A stretch of DNA of 64,000 nucleotides from NCBI GenBank assembly GCA_964005815.1, contig CAXFSR010000017.1:173401-237400 (forward strand), read 5' to 3'. Under the pieces are notes generated by a model. The model had not been told where the DNA came from. It did not search any database and worked only from the letters and a program-made list of their open reading frames with translations. The translations under genes and the position numbers were made by a program. This document shows positions 32,264 through 43,227 of the stretch, in pieces; positions within the stretch are counted from its first letter, which is position 1, and each line of letters starts with the position of its first letter. This DNA comes from an uncultured Nitrospinaceae bacterium (lineage in GTDB: Bacteria > UBA8248).

Positions 32264-32788
32264 TTATCCGATACCAACATGCTGCACATAGGCAACTTGC
32301 ATATTTGATCGTACTTGCTTAAGTATATCAGCTTCTTCTTCAGTCAAATTTCCTTTCATTTTCTCTTCTAACATACCAAAGAGATCAACAAATAATTTAG
32401 CAGCTCTAGGATCAGCCGACCCTACCTTTTCACCTGTTTGAGGATGAAGTCCCATTGCACCCAAAGCATTCGCTTGAAGAATAGCGATCATCATTTCGAA
32501 ATGTTTTTCATCTTCCTCTTCTTCCTTTTCTTCCTTAGATTCTTCCGATTGAATATCTGAGGATTCATCCGGAGACTGCTTAACTTCTTCTGGAATTTCT
32601 TGATTTAACTCGGATACATTTTCTGTTTGCCCTGAGGGTTCCGAATTATCAGAAGAAATAATAGGATTACTATCTGATTTTTCTTCAACTTCTTCAGCAT
32701 CATAACCAGTTACAGAATAGCGTCTATCTGAAACCTTGAAACTTTGAGGTTCTTCATTCTCTGAGATGTTTTTTTCTTCTTCAGACAT
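32264..32788 (-). CDS. hypothetical acidic protein (174 aa; Glu/Ser-rich N-terminal half, conserved-looking C-terminal about 80 aa)
   Basis: ORF between dnaJ and rpoZ on the minus strand. The N-terminal half is low-complexity and acidic (EEEKEEEEDEK). C-terminal MIAILQANALGAMGLHPQTGEKVGSADPRAAKLFVDLFGMLEEK... not recognised. Confidence 0.5.
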   Translation of the reverse strand: MSEEEKNISENEEPQSFKVSDRRYSVTGYDAEEVEEKSDSNPIISSDNSEPSGQTENVSELNQEIPEEVKQSPDESSDIQSEESKEEKEEEEDEKHFEMMIAILQANALGAMGLHPQTGEKVGSADPRAAKLFVDLFGMLEEKMKGNLTEEEADILKQVRSNMQVAYVQHVGIG

Positions 32789-32830: not shown

Positions 32831-33982
32831 TTATCTATAGAAAGGCAACCTTGGAAACTCAAAAAACTTTTTTATCTTATCAAATATGTGAATGCAGTTC
32901 AGAAAAGATTTAGTCGTCGGAGTTCCTTGCTTTTCAAATTTGGCTAATTCTTGGAATAGCTTCTTTTCTTTAGAACTTAACTTCCTTGGAGTAAGTATAG
33001 AAAAGACGACTATATGATCACCCTTAGAATTGCTTGTCAAAGATGGAAATCCTTGTTTTTTAATAACCGCGCTTTCTCCTGACTGAACTCCCTGTGGTAC
33101 TGTAATTTCACTTTCCCCATACAAAGTTTGTACAAGAATCTTTCCACCAAGCGCAGCCTGAGAAAAAGTCACATCTTCTCTGCTAAAAACATTATTTCCT
33201 TCTCTTTCTAATCTATCATGTTTTAATAGATTGACTATTACATGCAAATCTCCAGAAGGCCCTCCATTAATTCCACCTTCTCCCTTTTCACGTAATCTCA
33301 AACGTGATTCATGGTCAGCTCCTGGTGGAATTTTAACTTTCACAGAACATTCTTCTTGACGTTTTCCAGAACCCCTACATTCATCACAATGCTCTATAAT
33401 CTTATTTCCAGAACCGTCACATTCGGAACACTGAGAGCTAAAAGTTACGAACCCCTGCCTATATGCTACTTGACCACTTCCACCACAGGTTTCACAATTT
33501 AAAATAGATTCTGAATTTTTAGCTCCTGTACCACCGCAATATACACACTCTATTTCTCTTTCAAATTCGACATCATGTTCTGAACCCATAGCAGCTTCTT
33601 CGAATGTAAGATCTAACTGATATGCAAGATCTCTTCCTTTTACTCTTCCATCTCCTCTAGAACTTCGTCCAAATGCTCCGCCAAAAATGTCAGAAAAAAC
33701 ATCTCCAAAAGATGAGAAAATATCATCTACACTTGAGAAACCAGAAGAAAATCCACCAGAAAGTCCATCATGACCATATTGATCATAAATACCTCTTTTT
33801 TGAGTATCACTTAAAACTTGATAGGCTTCGGAAGCTTCTTTAAAAAGTTCTTCAGCTTTTGAATCTCCTGGATTTCTGTCTGGATGATACTGCATTGCTG
33901 TTGAGCGGTAAGCTTTTTTTATTTCCGACTCTGTTGCATTCCTGCTAATATTTAAAATTTCGTAATAATCCCTTTTTGACAC
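32831..33982 (-). CDS. dnaJ: chaperone DnaJ (type I, with CxxCxGxG zinc-finger repeats)
   Basis: J-domain with HPD (YHPDRNPG), G/F-rich linker, four CxxCxGxG repeats (CVYCGGTG, CETCGGSG, CSECDGSG, CDECRGSG), C-terminal domains. Confidence 0.9.
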   Translation of the reverse strand: MSKRDYYEILNISRNATESEIKKAYRSTAMQYHPDRNPGDSKAEELFKEASEAYQVLSDTQKRGIYDQYGHDGLSGGFSSGFSSVDDIFSSFGDVFSDIFGGAFGRSSRGDGRVKGRDLAYQLDLTFEEAAMGSEHDVEFEREIECVYCGGTGAKNSESILNCETCGGSGQVAYRQGFVTFSSQCSECDGSGNKIIEHCDECRGSGKRQEECSVKVKIPPGADHESRLRLREKGEGGINGGPSGDLHVIVNLLKHDRLEREGNNVFSREDVTFSQAALGGKILVQTLYGESEITVPQGVQSGESAVIKKQGFPSLTSNSKGDHIVVFSILTPRKLSSKEKKLFQELAKFEKQGTPTTKSFLNCIHIFDKIKKFFEFPRLPFYR

Positions 33983-34012: not shown

Positions 34013-34759
34013 TTAAGTAGGTTGCTCATCTTTTTTTGATTCGATATATCTTCCGACTGCAACACGACTAGGACGGAGAATCTCATCGTTTAAAAAATAC
34101 CCTACTGAAAGTTCTTCTAAAATTTTTCCATCTAATTCTTTATCTGTTACATCGTCAGAACGTATCGCTTCATGTCTAACAGGATCGAAAATTTCCCCAA
34201 CAGATTGAATTGGTTTTACCCCTTGTGAGGATAATTCTTGAAAGAATCTACTCTCCACCATTCGAAATCCTTCAATAAGGGATTGTATACCTTCAACTTT
34301 TGTGTTGGGTTCATTTTTCCAACCATCCTGTACTGCATGATTAGCCCTAGATAAATCATCTCCAACACTCAACAAACTAGTAAACAGTTCTTTTTTTACT
34401 TGTTGAATTCTTCTTTCTAAATCCTTTTCTTGACGTTTTCTAAACTCCTTAGACTCTTTATTAACTCTTGCAATATGTTCTTGAAGTTTTTCTTCTGCTA
34501 TCAAAACTTTTTTCTCTAAAAGTTCAACATAACTTGGCACCAAAGATGGTGACTCATCTTTATTTTTTTCTTCTGTTGAATCTTCTTCTGTAGGATCTTC
34601 TTCTGATTTAAAACGTCTACGATCATTTACACGGGCTTTTTCCTCTTCGTTCTCAATTTCTTTTGAATTCTCATCCTCTTTGGTATCAGAAGAAAAAATA
34701 TTTTCTCCTAATGAGGATTTCTCATCATCGTTAGAATCAACCTTCTCTACCTGCATCAA
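34013..34759 (-). CDS. grpE: nucleotide exchange factor GrpE
   Basis: 248 aa. Acidic N-terminus, long coiled-coil (…RVNKESKEFRKRQEKDLERRIQQVKKELF…) and a C-terminal beta-domain typical of GrpE. Confidence 0.85.
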   Translation of the reverse strand: MMQVEKVDSNDDEKSSLGENIFSSDTKEDENSKEIENEEEKARVNDRRRFKSEEDPTEEDSTEEKNKDESPSLVPSYVELLEKKVLIAEEKLQEHIARVNKESKEFRKRQEKDLERRIQQVKKELFTSLLSVGDDLSRANHAVQDGWKNEPNTKVEGIQSLIEGFRMVESRFFQELSSQGVKPIQSVGEIFDPVRHEAIRSDDVTDKELDGKILEELSVGYFLNDEILRPSRVAVGRYIESKKDEQPT

Positions 34760-34847
34760 AAAACCTCCAAAAGTTAAAAACTTTACAACCTAAAAAACCT
34801 TTACGAATTTCACTGACTTAAAACAAAAGAACAATACTATGTTCTAA

Positions 34848-35252
34848 TTATTTCTCTCTTTTGAGTTTCATAAGCTTCGCTCCTATAGATGGTATAAGAG
34901 CATTCATGTCAGGAGTTGCATTTTCAATTTTTTGACGAAATTCCTCAAATGCATCACTACTTAAAACCTCTTCCATCTGCTCAAGTCTTTCTATTGCCAA
35001 ATGTAGTTTTTGACGTAATTCTATAATTACTTCAACTCCAGCCAAATTAATTCCCATATCTCTAGTAAGTGTTAGAATAATTTCTAACTTTTCTAAATCT
35101 TTCTCTTCATAAAGACGAGTTCTACCCTCACTTCGCATAGGTTCAATTAATCCCTCTCTTTCATACATTCTCAAGGTCTGGGGATGTATTTCGAACATTT
35201 CAGCAACAGTACTTATAGTATATTTTACTTGTTTCCTGCTCCTACGTACCAA
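34848..35252 (-). CDS. hspR: MerR-family heat-shock repressor HspR-like
   Basis: N-terminal MerR HTH (YTISTVAEMFEIHPQTLRMYEREGLIEP...R.Y) followed by a coiled-coil. Embedded between J-protein and grpE genes. Confidence 0.8.
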   Translation of the reverse strand: MVRRSRKQVKYTISTVAEMFEIHPQTLRMYEREGLIEPMRSEGRTRLYEEKDLEKLEIILTLTRDMGINLAGVEVIIELRQKLHLAIERLEQMEEVLSSDAFEEFRQKIENATPDMNALIPSIGAKLMKLKREK

Positions 35253-35265
35253 GACCTTATCCTCA

Positions 35266-36213
35266 TTAAGTTCGTGAAATATTCATGCCTTCTCTAGGAT
35301 CAATTGGATTCAATCTTTCAAATTCTCGAATTAAATCTTTACTTTTTTCGTCAATTCTTTCAGGAAGTTTTAAACTTACAGCTACAAAAAGATCTCCCTT
35401 ACCAGTTCCCTTCATTTGAGGTGCGCCTTTTCCATTTAGTCGCAACCTTTGTCCATTTTGAGTCCCAGGAGGAATTGTAACTTTCGTTACTCCTTCGAAA
35501 GTTTCTAATTCTACACGAGTACCTAAAGAAAGCTCACCTAGAGTCAGGGGAAGATCAATATATAAATTATCTCCTTTTCTTTCAATGTAAGGATGAGTAC
35601 TTACCTTTGTTAAAATATACAGGTCACCATTTTTCCCTCCTGTCTGAGAAGTTTCCCCTTTACCTGTTAACCTAATTCGAGAACCATTTGAAACACCAGC
35701 AGGTATTTTCACTTTAATTCTTTCTGTTGCCCTTCTGAGGACACCATTGTTAATAATATTTTTAGGAACTGTCACAACAGTTTCCAGACCACGTAAGGCA
35801 TCATCAAAACCAATCTCTATAGAATAATTTACATCTTCTCCCTTTGTGTTTACTGGAGAACCCCAGTTTGAGGAACGATAGGAAGTTCTTCCACGTTGTC
35901 CTCCAAAAAAACTACCAAAGATATCTCCTATACCTATGTCTTTTAAGATATCTTCCATATTTATTCCGCCTTCCCATGGATTACCTCCTGAAAATGCAGC
36001 GTGGCCCATCGTGTCATATTTACGTCTTTTTTCAACATCAGAGAGGACTGCGTAAGCTTCACTTATTTCCTTGAAACGCTCTTCTGCAGATTTGTTCCCG
36101 GGATTTACATCAGGATGATATTTTCTGGCAAGTTTTTTAAATGCTCTCTTCAATTGTTCAGAAGAAACATCTCTATTTACTCCTAACAGCTCATAATAAT
36201 CCCGTTTCGACAT
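35266..36213 (-). CDS. cbpA: J-domain co-chaperone without zinc finger (CbpA/DnaJ type II-like)
   Basis: J-domain with HPD (YHPDVNPG), G/F region, C-terminal substrate-binding domains. No CxxCxGxG repeats. 315 aa. Confidence 0.8.
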   Translation of the reverse strand: MSKRDYYELLGVNRDVSSEQLKRAFKKLARKYHPDVNPGNKSAEERFKEISEAYAVLSDVEKRRKYDTMGHAAFSGGNPWEGGINMEDILKDIGIGDIFGSFFGGQRGRTSYRSSNWGSPVNTKGEDVNYSIEIGFDDALRGLETVVTVPKNIINNGVLRRATERIKVKIPAGVSNGSRIRLTGKGETSQTGGKNGDLYILTKVSTHPYIERKGDNLYIDLPLTLGELSLGTRVELETFEGVTKVTIPPGTQNGQRLRLNGKGAPQMKGTGKGDLFVAVSLKLPERIDEKSKDLIREFERLNPIDPREGMNISRT

Positions 36214-36248: not shown

Positions 36249-38174
36249 TTATTTGTCCTTTTTAACTTCTTCAAATTCTGCATCTACTACATCACCATCA
36301 TCACCACCTGTTTCATTTCCATTTTCTGTATTAGCAGATGGATTTTCAGAATCTGTATTTGCCTGTTTGCTAGCTTCTTCGTACATCGCCTGAGACAATT
36401 TATGTGATACAGTTTCTAAATTCGTTTTAGCAGAATCAATTTCTTCAATAGTTGCATCTTGATTTTCAAGAACTTTACGGACCTCTGCAATAGCATCTTC
36501 TATAGCTTTTTTATCTTCCTCTGAAACTTTATCATTGTTTTCACCCAACATCTTTTCTGTACTGTATGCGAGAGATTCTGCATTGTTTCTAGATTCCACG
36601 AGTTCTCTACGTTTTTTATCCTCACCAGCATTTTCTTCAGCATCTTTCACCATATTATTTATCTCTTCTTCAGAAATACCACTTGAACTCGTAATCGTAA
36701 TAGCTTGTTCCTTACCTGTACCTAAATCTTTTGCAGAAACATTAACAATCCCATTAGCATCAATGTCAAAGGTGACTTCTATTTGTGGCACTCCACGCGG
36801 AGCAGACGGAATATCTACAAGATGAAATTTTCCAAGACTACGATTATCAGCAGCCATTTCTCTCTCTCCTTGTAGAACATGCACCTCCACAGAAGTTTGA
36901 TTATCCGCAGCAGTAGAAAATGTTTCACTTTTTTTAACAGGAATTGTGGTGTTACGCTCAATAAGTTTCGTACAAACATTTCCTAAAGTCTCTATCCCTA
37001 GTGATAATGGAGTAACATCCAACAATAAAACATCCTTAACATCCCCTGCTAGAACACCACCTTGTACTGCCGCACCGACTGCTACAACTTCATCAGGATT
37101 CACACCTTTATGTGGTTCTTTAGTAAAGAATTTCTTTACTGTTTCCTGAACAAGAGGCATACGCGTAGAACCTCCAACTAAAACCACCTCATCTATATCT
37201 CCAGGTTGAAGATTTGCATCATTTAAAGATTGACGACAAGGAACAAGTGTTCTTTCTACTAATTCACCAGCAAGTTGTTCTAACTTAGAACGAGAAATTT
37301 TGATATTTAAATGTTTGGGTCCTGAGGAATCAGCTGTAATAAATGGAAGGTTAATATCAGTTTCCATTGAACTAGAAAGTTCAATCTTTGCTTTCTCAGA
37401 CTCTTCACGTAACCTCTGTAAAGCCATTGGATCAGTAGACAAATCAATACCCTGATCTTTTTTAAACTCCTCAACTAGCCAATCTATAATTTGTTGGTCA
37501 ATATTGTCACCACCTAGATGGGTATCTCCATTTGTCGCCTTAACTTCAACAACGTTATCTCCAACTTCGAGGATAGAAACATCGAAAGTTCCACCACCAA
37601 AATCATAAACAGCTATAGTTTGATCCTGCTTTTTGTCCAGACCATAGGCCAAAGCTGCCGCAGTAGGTTCATTAATTATACGCAGAACATTTAATCCAGC
37701 GATCTTTCCAGCATCTGTAGTAGCTTGTCTTTGACTATCATTAAAATATGCAGGAACTGTCACTACAGCATCACTAACTTCCTCTCCAAGATAGTCACTA
37801 GCTGCTTGTTTTAATTTTTGTAGAACACTAGAAGAAATTTCAGGTGGTGCGTAAACTTTACCATTTATCTTAAGCCTAGCATCACCATTCTCAGCTTTTA
37901 TAACTTCATAAGGCACCATCTTAACTTCTTCTGGAACCTCATCGAATCTTCTACCCATAAATCTCTTTACTGAATAAATAGTATTTGTAGGGTTGGTTAC
38001 TGCTTGCCTTTTAGCAACAACTCCAACAAGTTTCTCACCTTCTGGAGTAAAACCAACTATACTAGGTGTAGTACGATTCCCTTCCTGATTTGGTATGACC
38101 GTAGGTTCACCGGCTTCCATAATAGAAACTACAGAGTTTGTGGTTCCTAAATCAATACCAATAACTTTTCCCAT
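36249..38174 (-). CDS. dnaK: molecular chaperone DnaK (Hsp70)
   Basis: [28 protein letters not shown] Hsp70 signatures. 641 aa. AGGAGG RBS 7 nt upstream. Confidence 0.95.
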
Positions 38175-38246
38175 TTTTGCCTCCTAAAACAAAAAAATAA
38201 AATTAAAATCAACAATAAAAAAATAAAAAAACAAAATTGGATGTTA

Positions 38247-38301
38247 AATTTATAATATGAGTCTTTTATTGTCAATTTATATAAGTATAATTAACTCATA
38301 T
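38247..38301 (-). promoter_or_regulatory. candidate dnaK-operon sigma70-type promoter overlapped by an inverted repeat ATATGAGT/ACTCATAT (candidate HspR operator)
   Basis: Minus-strand TTGACA at 38270-38275. TATAAA-like -10 about 15-17 nt downstream (38247-38254). 8-bp inverted repeat arms at 38255-38262 and 38294-38301 bracket the -35. TGAGT/ACTCA are the half-sites of the HAIR consensus CTTGAGT-N7-ACTCAAG, but the spacing here is 31 nt. Confidence 0.4.
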
Positions 38302-38362
38302 ATAAATTGAATTAATTTTTTTATAAAATATCTGATTTGGAAATTAATTATTGATTAATTAA

Positions 38363-38392
38363 TTGATAGATTTGACAAAATTAAAATATAAA
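38363..38392 (+). promoter_or_regulatory. candidate promoter for the divergent iscA/erpA-like gene
   Basis: TTGATA (38363-38368), 18-nt spacer, TATAAA (38387-38392). A TTGACA is also present at 38372-38377. Very AT-rich context, so weak evidence. Confidence 0.25.
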
Positions 38393-38458
38393 GATAGCCT
38401 AACAAAAGAAATTGTTTATAAAGATATTAGTTAAAAATATTTAAAAAAGGGAACGTGA

Positions 38459-38827
38459 ATGGTAACTTTATTTGATGAAACCAAGTCACCTACAAAAAGC
38501 TCCGGGATTACCGTAACAGAAAATGCATCTAAAAAAGTGAGTGAACTTCTTAAAGCAGAAGGAAAAGAAAATCACGGACTTCGTTTATCAGTGACCGCAG
38601 GGGGCTGTTCAGGCTATAACTACGGATTATTTTTTGACGAAAAAGCAAACCCTGATGACAAAGTTTACGAATCAAACGGCATCAATATATTCATAGACAC
38701 TCAGAGCGATTCTCTTCTATCTGGCACAGAAATAGATTTCGTTGACAGCCTAGAAGGCTCAGGATTTAAAATCAACAATCCTAATGCAACGGGCACTTGC
38801 GGCTGCGGAAAATCTTTCACAGCCTAA
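38459..38827 (+). CDS. iron-sulfur cluster insertion protein, HesB/IscA/ErpA family
   Basis: 122 aa. Conserved Cys triad in GGCSGYNY ... GTCGCGKSF (C-x(n)-C-G-C). Confidence 0.8.
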   Translation: MVTLFDETKSPTKSSGITVTENASKKVSELLKAEGKENHGLRLSVTAGGCSGYNYGLFFDEKANPDDKVYESNGINIFIDTQSDSLLSGTEIDFVDSLEGSGFKINNPNATGTCGCGKSFTA

Positions 38828-41982: not shown

Positions 41983-43227
41983 TTAGCCAATTCCACCTAC
42001 TGTGACACCATTTGGCTCGGGCGCTTCAAGTGCTGGCAATACATGAGTCATAAATGCATCTAACTCAGATATTACTTCTTTAGATGGAATCTGTGCATAG
42101 TGCCAGATCAAAGTGATATATTCAGCGGGAACTTTATCATAAGAATGGAGGAATTGCTCCTTCAACTGTTCTACGGTACCACCGAGAAAAATACCACTAT
42201 CTTTCATGTTCTCTACCCAATCTATATTTGATGTGTCATCTGGGAACTGGGGAAAGAAAGGAACATAAAAATTTTCATAGATATCTTGATCATACTCTTT
42301 AAGCTTACGATCGTAATCGGCTTCATTTTCAGCTACATGAATCCACCTGCAAACACATTGCCTTTCTCCATGCGCAAAGTTATGTCCATGCTTTTGTGCT
42401 TCTTCTACATAAACATATGACATTTCTTCCATTTTTTCCAATTTAGTGAAATACACAGGCCGAAAACCATGCTTAGCTGCAAATTTGATAGAATCATTAC
42501 TAGCACTAACTGCCTGAAAAACTGGAGGATGTGGAGACTGGTATGGTTTAGGAACAACACTGACTTTATGTACTCTTCCATCTTCACCTACTTCTCCGTG
42601 CGTTCCTGCATCTCGTGCACTTTTCCAAGCTGGATACTCTATACCGTCTTTATAGGGGTAAGGAATTTTATAATAGTTGCCATCTATCTGTGAAGATTCT
42701 TCAGTCCAAAATTTCAAAAGCATCTCTGCACGCTCTTCGAAAATTTCTCGATTTTTCACATCATCATCTCCGCCAAGATCAGAACTAACGGTTGCAACCG
42801 AATCTGTGAATTGGCCCAAAACATTTGCCCATCTGGACTGATACCCTCGTGCCATACCAACAAACATTTTCCCTTTAGTTATATGATCCAGAATTGCGGT
42901 TTCTTCTGCAACCCTAACTGGATCCTGTGTAGCCATAACATAGCCTAGAGCACCAACACGCGCATTTTTTACGTGACTAGCCCACCAAGCATTTAAAACA
43001 CCTGGATTAGGTCCTACCTCATACCCTTCTGAATGAAAATGATGTTCTATAGTACTAACCCCCCAAACACCCATTTCATCTGCAGCCTTGACTATATCAA
43101 GCCATTCGTGGAGAACATGATGGTAAAGATCTGTGTCACAAGCAAGAGGCCTTTTTTCTTCACGCTCAGCACGATCCTTTGATGGAAGCATAGGGTATAA
43201 CTGAACTATGACTTTAGGTTTTGCCAT
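41983..43227 (-). CDS. LLM-class (luciferase-like) flavin-dependent monooxygenase/oxidoreductase
   Basis: 414 aa TIM-barrel LLM pattern (…WGVSTIEHHF…, …ALGYVMATQDP…, …FVGMARGY…). Confidence 0.8.
   Translation of the reverse strand: MAKPKVIVQLYPMLPSKDRAEREEKRPLACDTDLYHHVLHEWLDIVKAADEMGVWGVSTIEHHFHSEGYEVGPNPGVLNAWWASHVKNARVGALGYVMATQDPVRVAEETAILDHITKGKMFVGMARGYQSRWANVLGQFTDSVATVSSDLGGDDDVKNREIFEERAEMLLKFWTEESSQIDGNYYKIPYPYKDGIEYPAWKSARDAGTHGEVGEDGRVHKVSVVPKPYQSPHPPVFQAVSASNDSIKFAAKHGFRPVYFTKLEKMEEMSYVYVEEAQKHGHNFAHGERQCVCRWIHVAENEADYDRKLKEYDQDIYENFYVPFFPQFPDDTSNIDWVENMKDSGIFLGGTVEQLKEQFLHSYDKVPAEYITLIWHYAQIPSKEVISELDAFMTHVLPALEAPEPNGVTVGGIG

Follow-up and report, generated by a model that had tools for sequence, protein, structure and literature searches.

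The dnaK-cbpA-hspR-grpE-dnaJ operon in the stretch of DNA analyzed here (64,000 nucleotides; the window) is likely headed by a sigma-70-type promoter that carries two adjacent 21-bp HspR/HAIR operators, each with the canonical 7-nt spacer. This reading draws on sequence anatomy, conservation among relatives, and operon content, each of which we observed directly. The initial annotation had instead proposed a noncanonical HspR operator at this promoter, consisting of an inverted repeat with arms 31 nt apart wrapped around the -35 box. We recovered that repeat: the arms ATATGAGT (38255-38262) and ACTCATAT (38294-38301) on the plus strand are perfect complements (8/8) separated by exactly 31 nt, and the pair occurs at this spacing only once in the 64-kb window. 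Between the arms lies TGTCAA (38270-38275, plus strand), which reads TTGACA on the minus strand; however, the dyad falls at 38278, 3 nt upstream of the hexamer, rather than within it as had been claimed. Downstream of TTGACA on the minus strand, TATAAA follows at 15 nt and TAAATT at 17 nt, and a promoter scan returned TTGACA-17-TAAATT (10/12; 38275 to 38247), in agreement with the near-consensus dnaK promoter described earlier.

For close comparison we used L109, a metagenome-assembled genome of the window's clade (GCA_036231405.1; HspR 96% identical, 36.6% G+C). The -35 hexamer (38270-38275, minus strand), located by the promoter scan, is kept in L109 as TTGAC. For the -10 hexamer, TAAATT (38247-38252, minus strand; 17-nt spacer) was preferred over TATAAA (15 nt) by homology: relatives carry their -10 (TATAtT) at the same 17-nt spacing, and L109 has TACAGT there. 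Transcription of dnaK is predicted to start near 38240.

In the dnaK sense, the region reads ...TTCAATTTATA TATGAGT taattat ACTTATA taa ATTGACA ataaaag ACTCATA ttaTAAATT..., that is, two 21-bp HAIR-like units with a 7-nt spacer each, a 3-nt gap between them, and centers 24 bp apart. Site B, ATTGACA-ataaaag-ACTCATA (38256-38276, minus strand), uses the -35 box as its left half and has its right half in the promoter spacer. Site A, TATGAGT-taattat-ACTTATA (38280-38300, minus strand), lies 3 nt upstream of site B and is 6/7 self-symmetric. The arms of the long repeat do contain HAIR half-sites, as originally noted, and these are the outer halves of the two units: ATATGAGT consists of the right half of site B (ACTCATA) and 1 further nt, and ACTCATAT of the left half of site A (TATGAGT) and 1 further nt. 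The 31-nt spacing is thus the sum 7 + 7 + 3 + 7 + 7, with the left half of site A paired with the right half of site B. Judged from the sequence, the long repeat is a by-product of the outer half-sites, which are free of constraint; the degeneracy of the inner pair is explained by the need for one of them to serve as the -35 box and by the position of the other against the A-rich tract upstream of that box. The earlier suggestion of "two half-operators" was correct in that there are two separate elements, but each is a full 21-bp operator with a degenerate inner half-site. One feature of this geometry counts against the two-site model: at a center spacing of 24 bp (∼2.3 helical turns), two dimers would not sit on the same face of the DNA.

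The first gene of the operon, dnaK (Hsp70; 641 amino acids; 36249-38174, minus strand; Pfam HSP70, 875 bits), is preceded by the Shine-Dalgarno sequence AGGAGG (38185 to 38180). It is followed on the same strand by a cbpA-like J-protein gene (35266-36213), whose product has a DnaJ J-domain and C-terminal domain but no zinc finger, and then by a gene for a 134-amino-acid MerR-family protein (34848-35252; Pfam MerR_1), which is placed between cbpA and grpE. Pfam matches identified grpE (34013-34759), dnaJ (32831-33982), and a DUF1844 gene (32264-32788), all on the minus strand; relatives share this downstream gene order (grpE, dnaJ, DUF1844). An erpA-like Fe-S gene starts at 38459, divergent from dnaK. 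The best NCBIfam family for the MerR protein was the HspR equivalog (101.5 bits, E = 1.9 × 10−29), 3.5 bits short of its cut-off of 105, so that the regulator encoded within the chaperone operon is HspR-like by a score below the HspR threshold. Homologues of this protein are named HspR by JGI, and sources label them Nitrospinota MerR/HspR. The helix-turn-helix residues are invariant in 32 homologues, and identical proteins occur on marine (Tara) metagenome contigs. A PDB sequence search returned generic MerR/GlnR relatives and no HspR structure, and a search of the literature gave no report on HspR in Nitrospinota. No hrcA was found among the annotated open reading frames (ORFs) of the window (G+C content, 32 to 39%), nor were clpB, lon, groES/EL, or hsp20 found in a Pfam scan of its 20 larger ORFs.

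We asked how much of the repeat structure is attributable to base composition. The 284-nt spacer upstream of dnaK is 84% A+T, and a repeat finder reported 43 inverted pairs in it, one of them a perfect 12-mer. A generic 8-bp repeat is uninformative here, because 87% of dinucleotide shuffles of the spacer contained at least one perfect 8-bp inverted repeat (loop of ≤40 nt; mean of 3.2). The G/C-bearing cores are rare by the same measure: TGAGT...ACTCA within 37 nt occurred in 0.2% of local shuffles, and a match of at least 9/10 to TGAGT-N7-ACTCA in 0.15%.

Conservation identified TTGACA-N7-ACTCA, the core of site B, as the unit shared most widely. A profile search of contigs with an HspR alignment, keeping one genome per species, yielded at least 80 loci, mostly from Acidobacteriota and with the gene order dnaK-cbpA-hspR. 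Among the matches listed, all 53 independent loci with a usable upstream region carried TTGA[CG][AT]-N7-[AG]CT[CA]A within 300 nt upstream of dnaK (shuffle expectation, 0.001 per locus), and 40 of these 53 carried the strict form TTGACA-N7-ACTCA. In Acidobacteriota-type loci, this motif stands before the -10. Aligned on the motif, the relatives read aaa[c/g]TTGACAa-N6-ACTCAgaTATTATAtT, with the -10 at 17-nt spacing. The invariance of the -35 in this alignment is not independent evidence, because the anchoring expression demanded the hexamer; conserved columns outside the search pattern are C12 (75%), T20 (93%), and A24/T25 of the -10 (98%). A profile hidden Markov model (HMM) built from 60 relatives' promoters, excluding the window, gave one good match in 64 kb, at 38275 to 38254 (E = 0.021; next match, 7.9). 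Site B is also the single occurrence of TTGACA-N7-ACTNA in the window.

Close relatives, which this profile search did not supply, were collected through exact protein matches. The same module was found upstream of clpB in five of five other Nitrospinota (L098, L101, L103, L105, and L107) and in the nearest G+C-rich relatives, L008 and L010; in all seven, the operon begins with clpB. In L007 to L010, the motif was not found upstream of dnaK because clpB stands in front of dnaK in these loci. From the relatives we derived the consensus cTTGACA-N7-ACTCAag, with TATTATAtT after it; this consensus agrees at 12 of 14 positions with the Streptomyces HAIR sequence, CTTGAGT-N7-ACTCAAG (PMC7464140). 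Sites A and B each agree with that 14-nt consensus at 9 positions, with the TGA../..TCA or TGAGT/ACT.A cores intact in both. We consider the two sites degenerate members of the HAIR family, because a scan of the window for the classical consensus with up to 3 mismatches missed both and returned two intragenic matches, no more than expected by chance. As degenerate members, both nonetheless have the 7-nt spacer of a HAIR inverted repeat, and together they cover or abut the core promoter, as assigned by consensus and by homology to the 60 relatives. Motif scans and the profile HMM found no second operator locus in the 64-kb window, and no HAIR-like site was found in the hspR-grpE gap (34760-34847).

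A weaker resemblance to the family was seen at 42044-42074 (plus strand), which reads TGAGT-N14-ACTCAGATATTA; its final 12 nt are identical to ACTCAgatATTA, the stretch of the family consensus that follows the -35. We rejected ACTCAGATATTA (42063-42074) as a second site: it falls within the 3′ end of an ORF (41983-43227, minus strand), lacks TTGACA, and has an E value of 7.9, consistent with chance.

Site A is probably a second operator; the support for it comes from L109 as the sole diverged relative, from a few strains, and from a statistic computed post hoc. It is the single match of at least 9/10 to TGAGT-N7-ACTCA in 64 kb and has 1 mismatch to TATGAGT-N7-ACTCATA (0.04 matches expected). 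In a gap-free alignment of the window with L109 anchored on the -35, TATATGAG, CTTATATAA, TTGAC, and ACTCATAT are common to both, and the 3-nt gap is kept. All four half-sites are retained in L109, while both N7 spacers have diverged and the flanks are 44 to 46% identical. Within site A, L109 shows a symmetric double change (T to C and A to G) that converts GAGT..ACTT to GAGC..GCTT. The strain variants L002 and L006 have TTTGAGT in site A, nearer to the HAIR consensus. Five Acidobacteriota-type loci, among those listed, carry an additional right half-site upstream (6/7 or better to ACTCAAG), at an offset equivalent to that of site A, about -12 from the -35 and ∼25 bp upstream of the core ACTCA; one locus (L074) has a full GTTGAGT-N7-ACTCAAC at the equivalent offset.

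These comparisons bear on whether site B could be the only functional operator, with site A, and hence the 31-nt repeat, a chance palindrome or an element of another kind (UP-like, or the target of a regulator that controls the divergent erpA-like gene). Site A was not found in five more distant Nitrospinota or in most Acidobacteriota-type loci, the spacer is crowded with 43 inverted pairs, and the site A statistic is post hoc. In addition, a neighbor that also looked striking, the perfect 12-nt repeat TCAATTTATATA-N15-TATATAAATTGA (38272-38283 and 38299-38310), is not kept in L109. Nevertheless, the core match of site A (0.15% of local shuffles) is unique in 64 kb, the site adjoins site B exactly, and its half-sites have been kept, with a symmetry-preserving double change, between flanks that are only 44 to 46% identical. 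Adjacent, weaker HAIR-like sites also have precedent in Campylobacter jejuni and Streptomyces coelicolor (PMC7464140). We therefore consider it unlikely that site B acts alone. The TCAATTTATATA-N15-TATATAAATTGA repeat, which is centered one base off the dyad of site A, was itself rejected as a real element, given the loss of its left arm in L109, and is probably incidental.

A single extended operator, in which the outer arms are the symmetry partners and are bound by one higher-order complex (for instance, a tetramer that spans 47 bp), appears improbable. The arms are 8/8 complementary, TGAGT...ACTCA at such a range is locally rare (0.2%), and both arms are retained in L109 (7/8 and 8/8). Helicobacter pylori HspR, moreover, protects ∼70 bp and may oligomerize, although nucleation of this footprint starts at a central N7 HAIR rather than at distant arms (PMC6102357). 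Here, each arm has a canonical N7 partner of its own, so the partners lie 7 nt apart rather than 31, and the conserved unit is TTGACA-N7-ACTCA without any upstream TGAGT, both in the 53 of 53 Acidobacteriota-type loci (among those listed) and in the other Nitrospinota. The double change in L109 points the same way: the N7 palindrome stays at 6/7, while complementarity between the long-range arms drops to 7/8, such that the inner base of the site A arm covaries with its N7 partner and not with the other arm. The noncanonical 31-nt spacing inferred at first is thus replaced by two canonical N7 units, the conserved one recurring across phyla.

Sigma-70 does not read mid-spacer sequence, and both the -35 and the -10 are ordinary sigma-70 hexamers. 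That there is no repressor site at all, and that the spacer ACTCA belongs to the promoter itself (read by an alternative sigma factor, for example, or acting like a discriminator) with the repeat incidental, would fit the always fixed position of the element relative to the -35 and -10 but is extremely improbable, given that the module co-occurs with hspR in every locus examined (the loci having been retrieved via hspR), that the relatives' consensus matches HAIR at 12/14 with the exact 7-nt spacing, and that experiments in three other phyla have shown HspR binding to require HAIR (PMC6102357 and PMC7464140).

An element acting at the RNA level was also rejected: the region has no Rfam match, and the leader folds no better than shuffled sequences (z = -0.39). 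Within the very U-rich dnaK leader (38175-38242, minus strand), a run, UUUUGUUUUUU, can pair with the Shine-Dalgarno region AGGAGGCAAAA in a manner resembling a fourU thermometer; this candidate was set aside on the same z score and lack of an Rfam match.

We propose the following mechanism for the two-site promoter, in which HspR binding, the transcription start, cooperativity, and heat induction are inferred by analogy with known systems. The HspR-like MerR protein is the presumed ligand of both sites. An HspR dimer on site B, covering the -35 and the -35/-10 spacer, would exclude RNA polymerase. Site A, at about -60 to -40, would probably hold a second dimer that stabilizes repression, either cooperatively or as a higher-affinity nucleation site. 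Upon heat shock, HspR would lose affinity for DNA, and the operon, including the presumably autoregulated hspR, would be derepressed. In Streptomyces, HspR is released through titration of its DnaK co-repressor.

The proposed arrangement resembles several characterized HspR systems. As in S. coelicolor and S. albus, the gene for a MerR-family HspR lies within the dnaK operon that HspR would repress, and a 7-nt-spacer inverted repeat is present in multiple copies over the dnaK promoter. The Streptomyces operon has the order dnaK-grpE-dnaJ-hspR, whereas the order in the window is dnaK-cbpA-hspR-grpE-dnaJ. HspR also controls clpB in S. coelicolor and S. albus. Relative to Streptomyces, the window, from the phylum Nitrospinota, has two copies, each 9/14, with outer positions that have drifted to A/T (TATGAGT), and the -35 TTGACA itself serves as a half-site; at the S. 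coelicolor dnaK promoter, HspR is bound at three HAIR copies (PMC6102357 and PMC7464140). In C. jejuni, the core promoters of Pcbp and PclpB are each covered by two HAIR-like sites that differ in affinity, the stronger assisting the weaker (PMC7464140). The likeness to the window extends to adjacent 21-bp sites of unequal quality that overlap the core promoter and to a cbpA-hspR pair (PMC7464140); in contrast, dnaK in C. jejuni is on a separate hrcA-grpE-dnaK promoter with HrcA/CIRCE. In H. pylori, cooperative spreading from a single central HAIR extends HspR over ∼70 bp (PMC6102357). The Pcbp operator there, like that in the window, overlaps its own promoter, with occupancy beyond one 21-bp site (∼70 bp; PMC6102357), but H. 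pylori has one recognizable HAIR with nonconserved flanks, whereas the flanking site in the window is itself a HAIR-like palindrome. The orthologous clpB operons of other Nitrospinota and the dnaK operons of Acidobacteriota share the identical module aaa[CG]TTGACA-N7-ACTCA..TATTATATT with the window at the head of the operon. The window's clade differs from these in having the extra upstream site A and in lacking an element that Acidobacteriota carry ∼24 bp downstream of ACTCA.

That downstream element was noticed in Acidobacteriota-type loci (e.g., L015 and L026) as a third conserved sequence, G(C/A)(T/C)TCAA(G/C), at +37 to +43 from the first T of TTGACA. Its distance downstream from the core ACTCA is exactly 24 bp, which places it close to where transcription is expected to begin; it may be a further HspR half-site. 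It matches ACTCAAG at 6/7 or better in 11 of 60 loci and is present in neither the window nor L109.

Comparison of the locus across Nitrospinota offers a possible history of the promoter. Other members of the phylum have the order clpB-dnaK-cbpA-hspR-M48-grpE-dnaJ-DUF1844-rpoZ in the same Fe-S/radical-SAM neighborhood. In the A+T-rich clade formed by the window and L109, clpB, the Rrf2 gene, and the M48 peptidase gene are missing at the locus (window positions 38175-38458 compared), and the gap between hspR and grpE in the window is just 88 nt (34760-34847). With clpB, Rrf2, and M48 lost from the locus, the old clpB promoter would therefore now drive dnaK directly, and the change looks like genome streamlining that shifted this promoter onto dnaK. 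Among the loci L097 to L107 (e.g., L098, 1370-5404), we also observed radical-SAM, erpA-like Fe-S, and Rrf2 genes divergent from the clpB cluster.

A broader scenario, which we regard as doubtful when taken as a whole, joins an ancient operator module embedded in the -35, a new upstream operator replacing the downstream element, and a functional 31-nt clamp. If it were true, the module with TTGACA as a half-site would be ancestral to Acidobacteriota, Nitrospinota, and related uncultured lineages; a streamlined marine clade deleting clpB, Rrf2, and M48 would have swapped the downstream auxiliary element for site A; and strong outer half-sites would clamp the -35 from both sides, making the 31-nt symmetry meaningful for a dimer of dimers.

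The HspR/HAIR circuit is already known, and the two-site, promoter-embedded operator described here is, as far as the sequence goes, a further example of it; the understanding of heat-shock repression is unchanged. What the two-site reading would add is an extension of the circuit, experimentally known in Actinobacteria and Campylobacterota, to Nitrospinota (marine relatives of nitrite oxidizers) and Acidobacteriota, together with a precise operator model of two 21-bp sites with the -35 box as a half-site. It also carries a practical lesson: scans with the Streptomyces HAIR miss sites in A+T-rich genomes that the family-specific TTGACA-N7-ACTCA detects, and comparative footprinting can show that an odd long-range palindrome consists of ordinary tandem operators.

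Several minor observations were made in neighboring sequences. In the window, TTGACA at 38373-38378 is followed 17 nt on by TAGCCT (38373-38401, plus strand), a possible promoter for the erpA-like gene (38459-38827); its -10 is weak, and it is absent from the consensus-scan output. In the predicted clpB 5′ leaders of L101 (∼2760-2790) and L105, G+C-rich hairpin-like sequences, GGGTCCTTGTAGGGCCTGCC and GGGTCCTCGGAGGACCTGC, could form a leader structure, for which the window has no counterpart. Finally, the clpB-dnaK interval of L007 (2720-3038) contains several short, perfect palindromes built around ATATAT (GTCAGACATATATGTCTGAC and GGGTCGCATATATGCGACCC) that resemble REP-type intergenic repeats.
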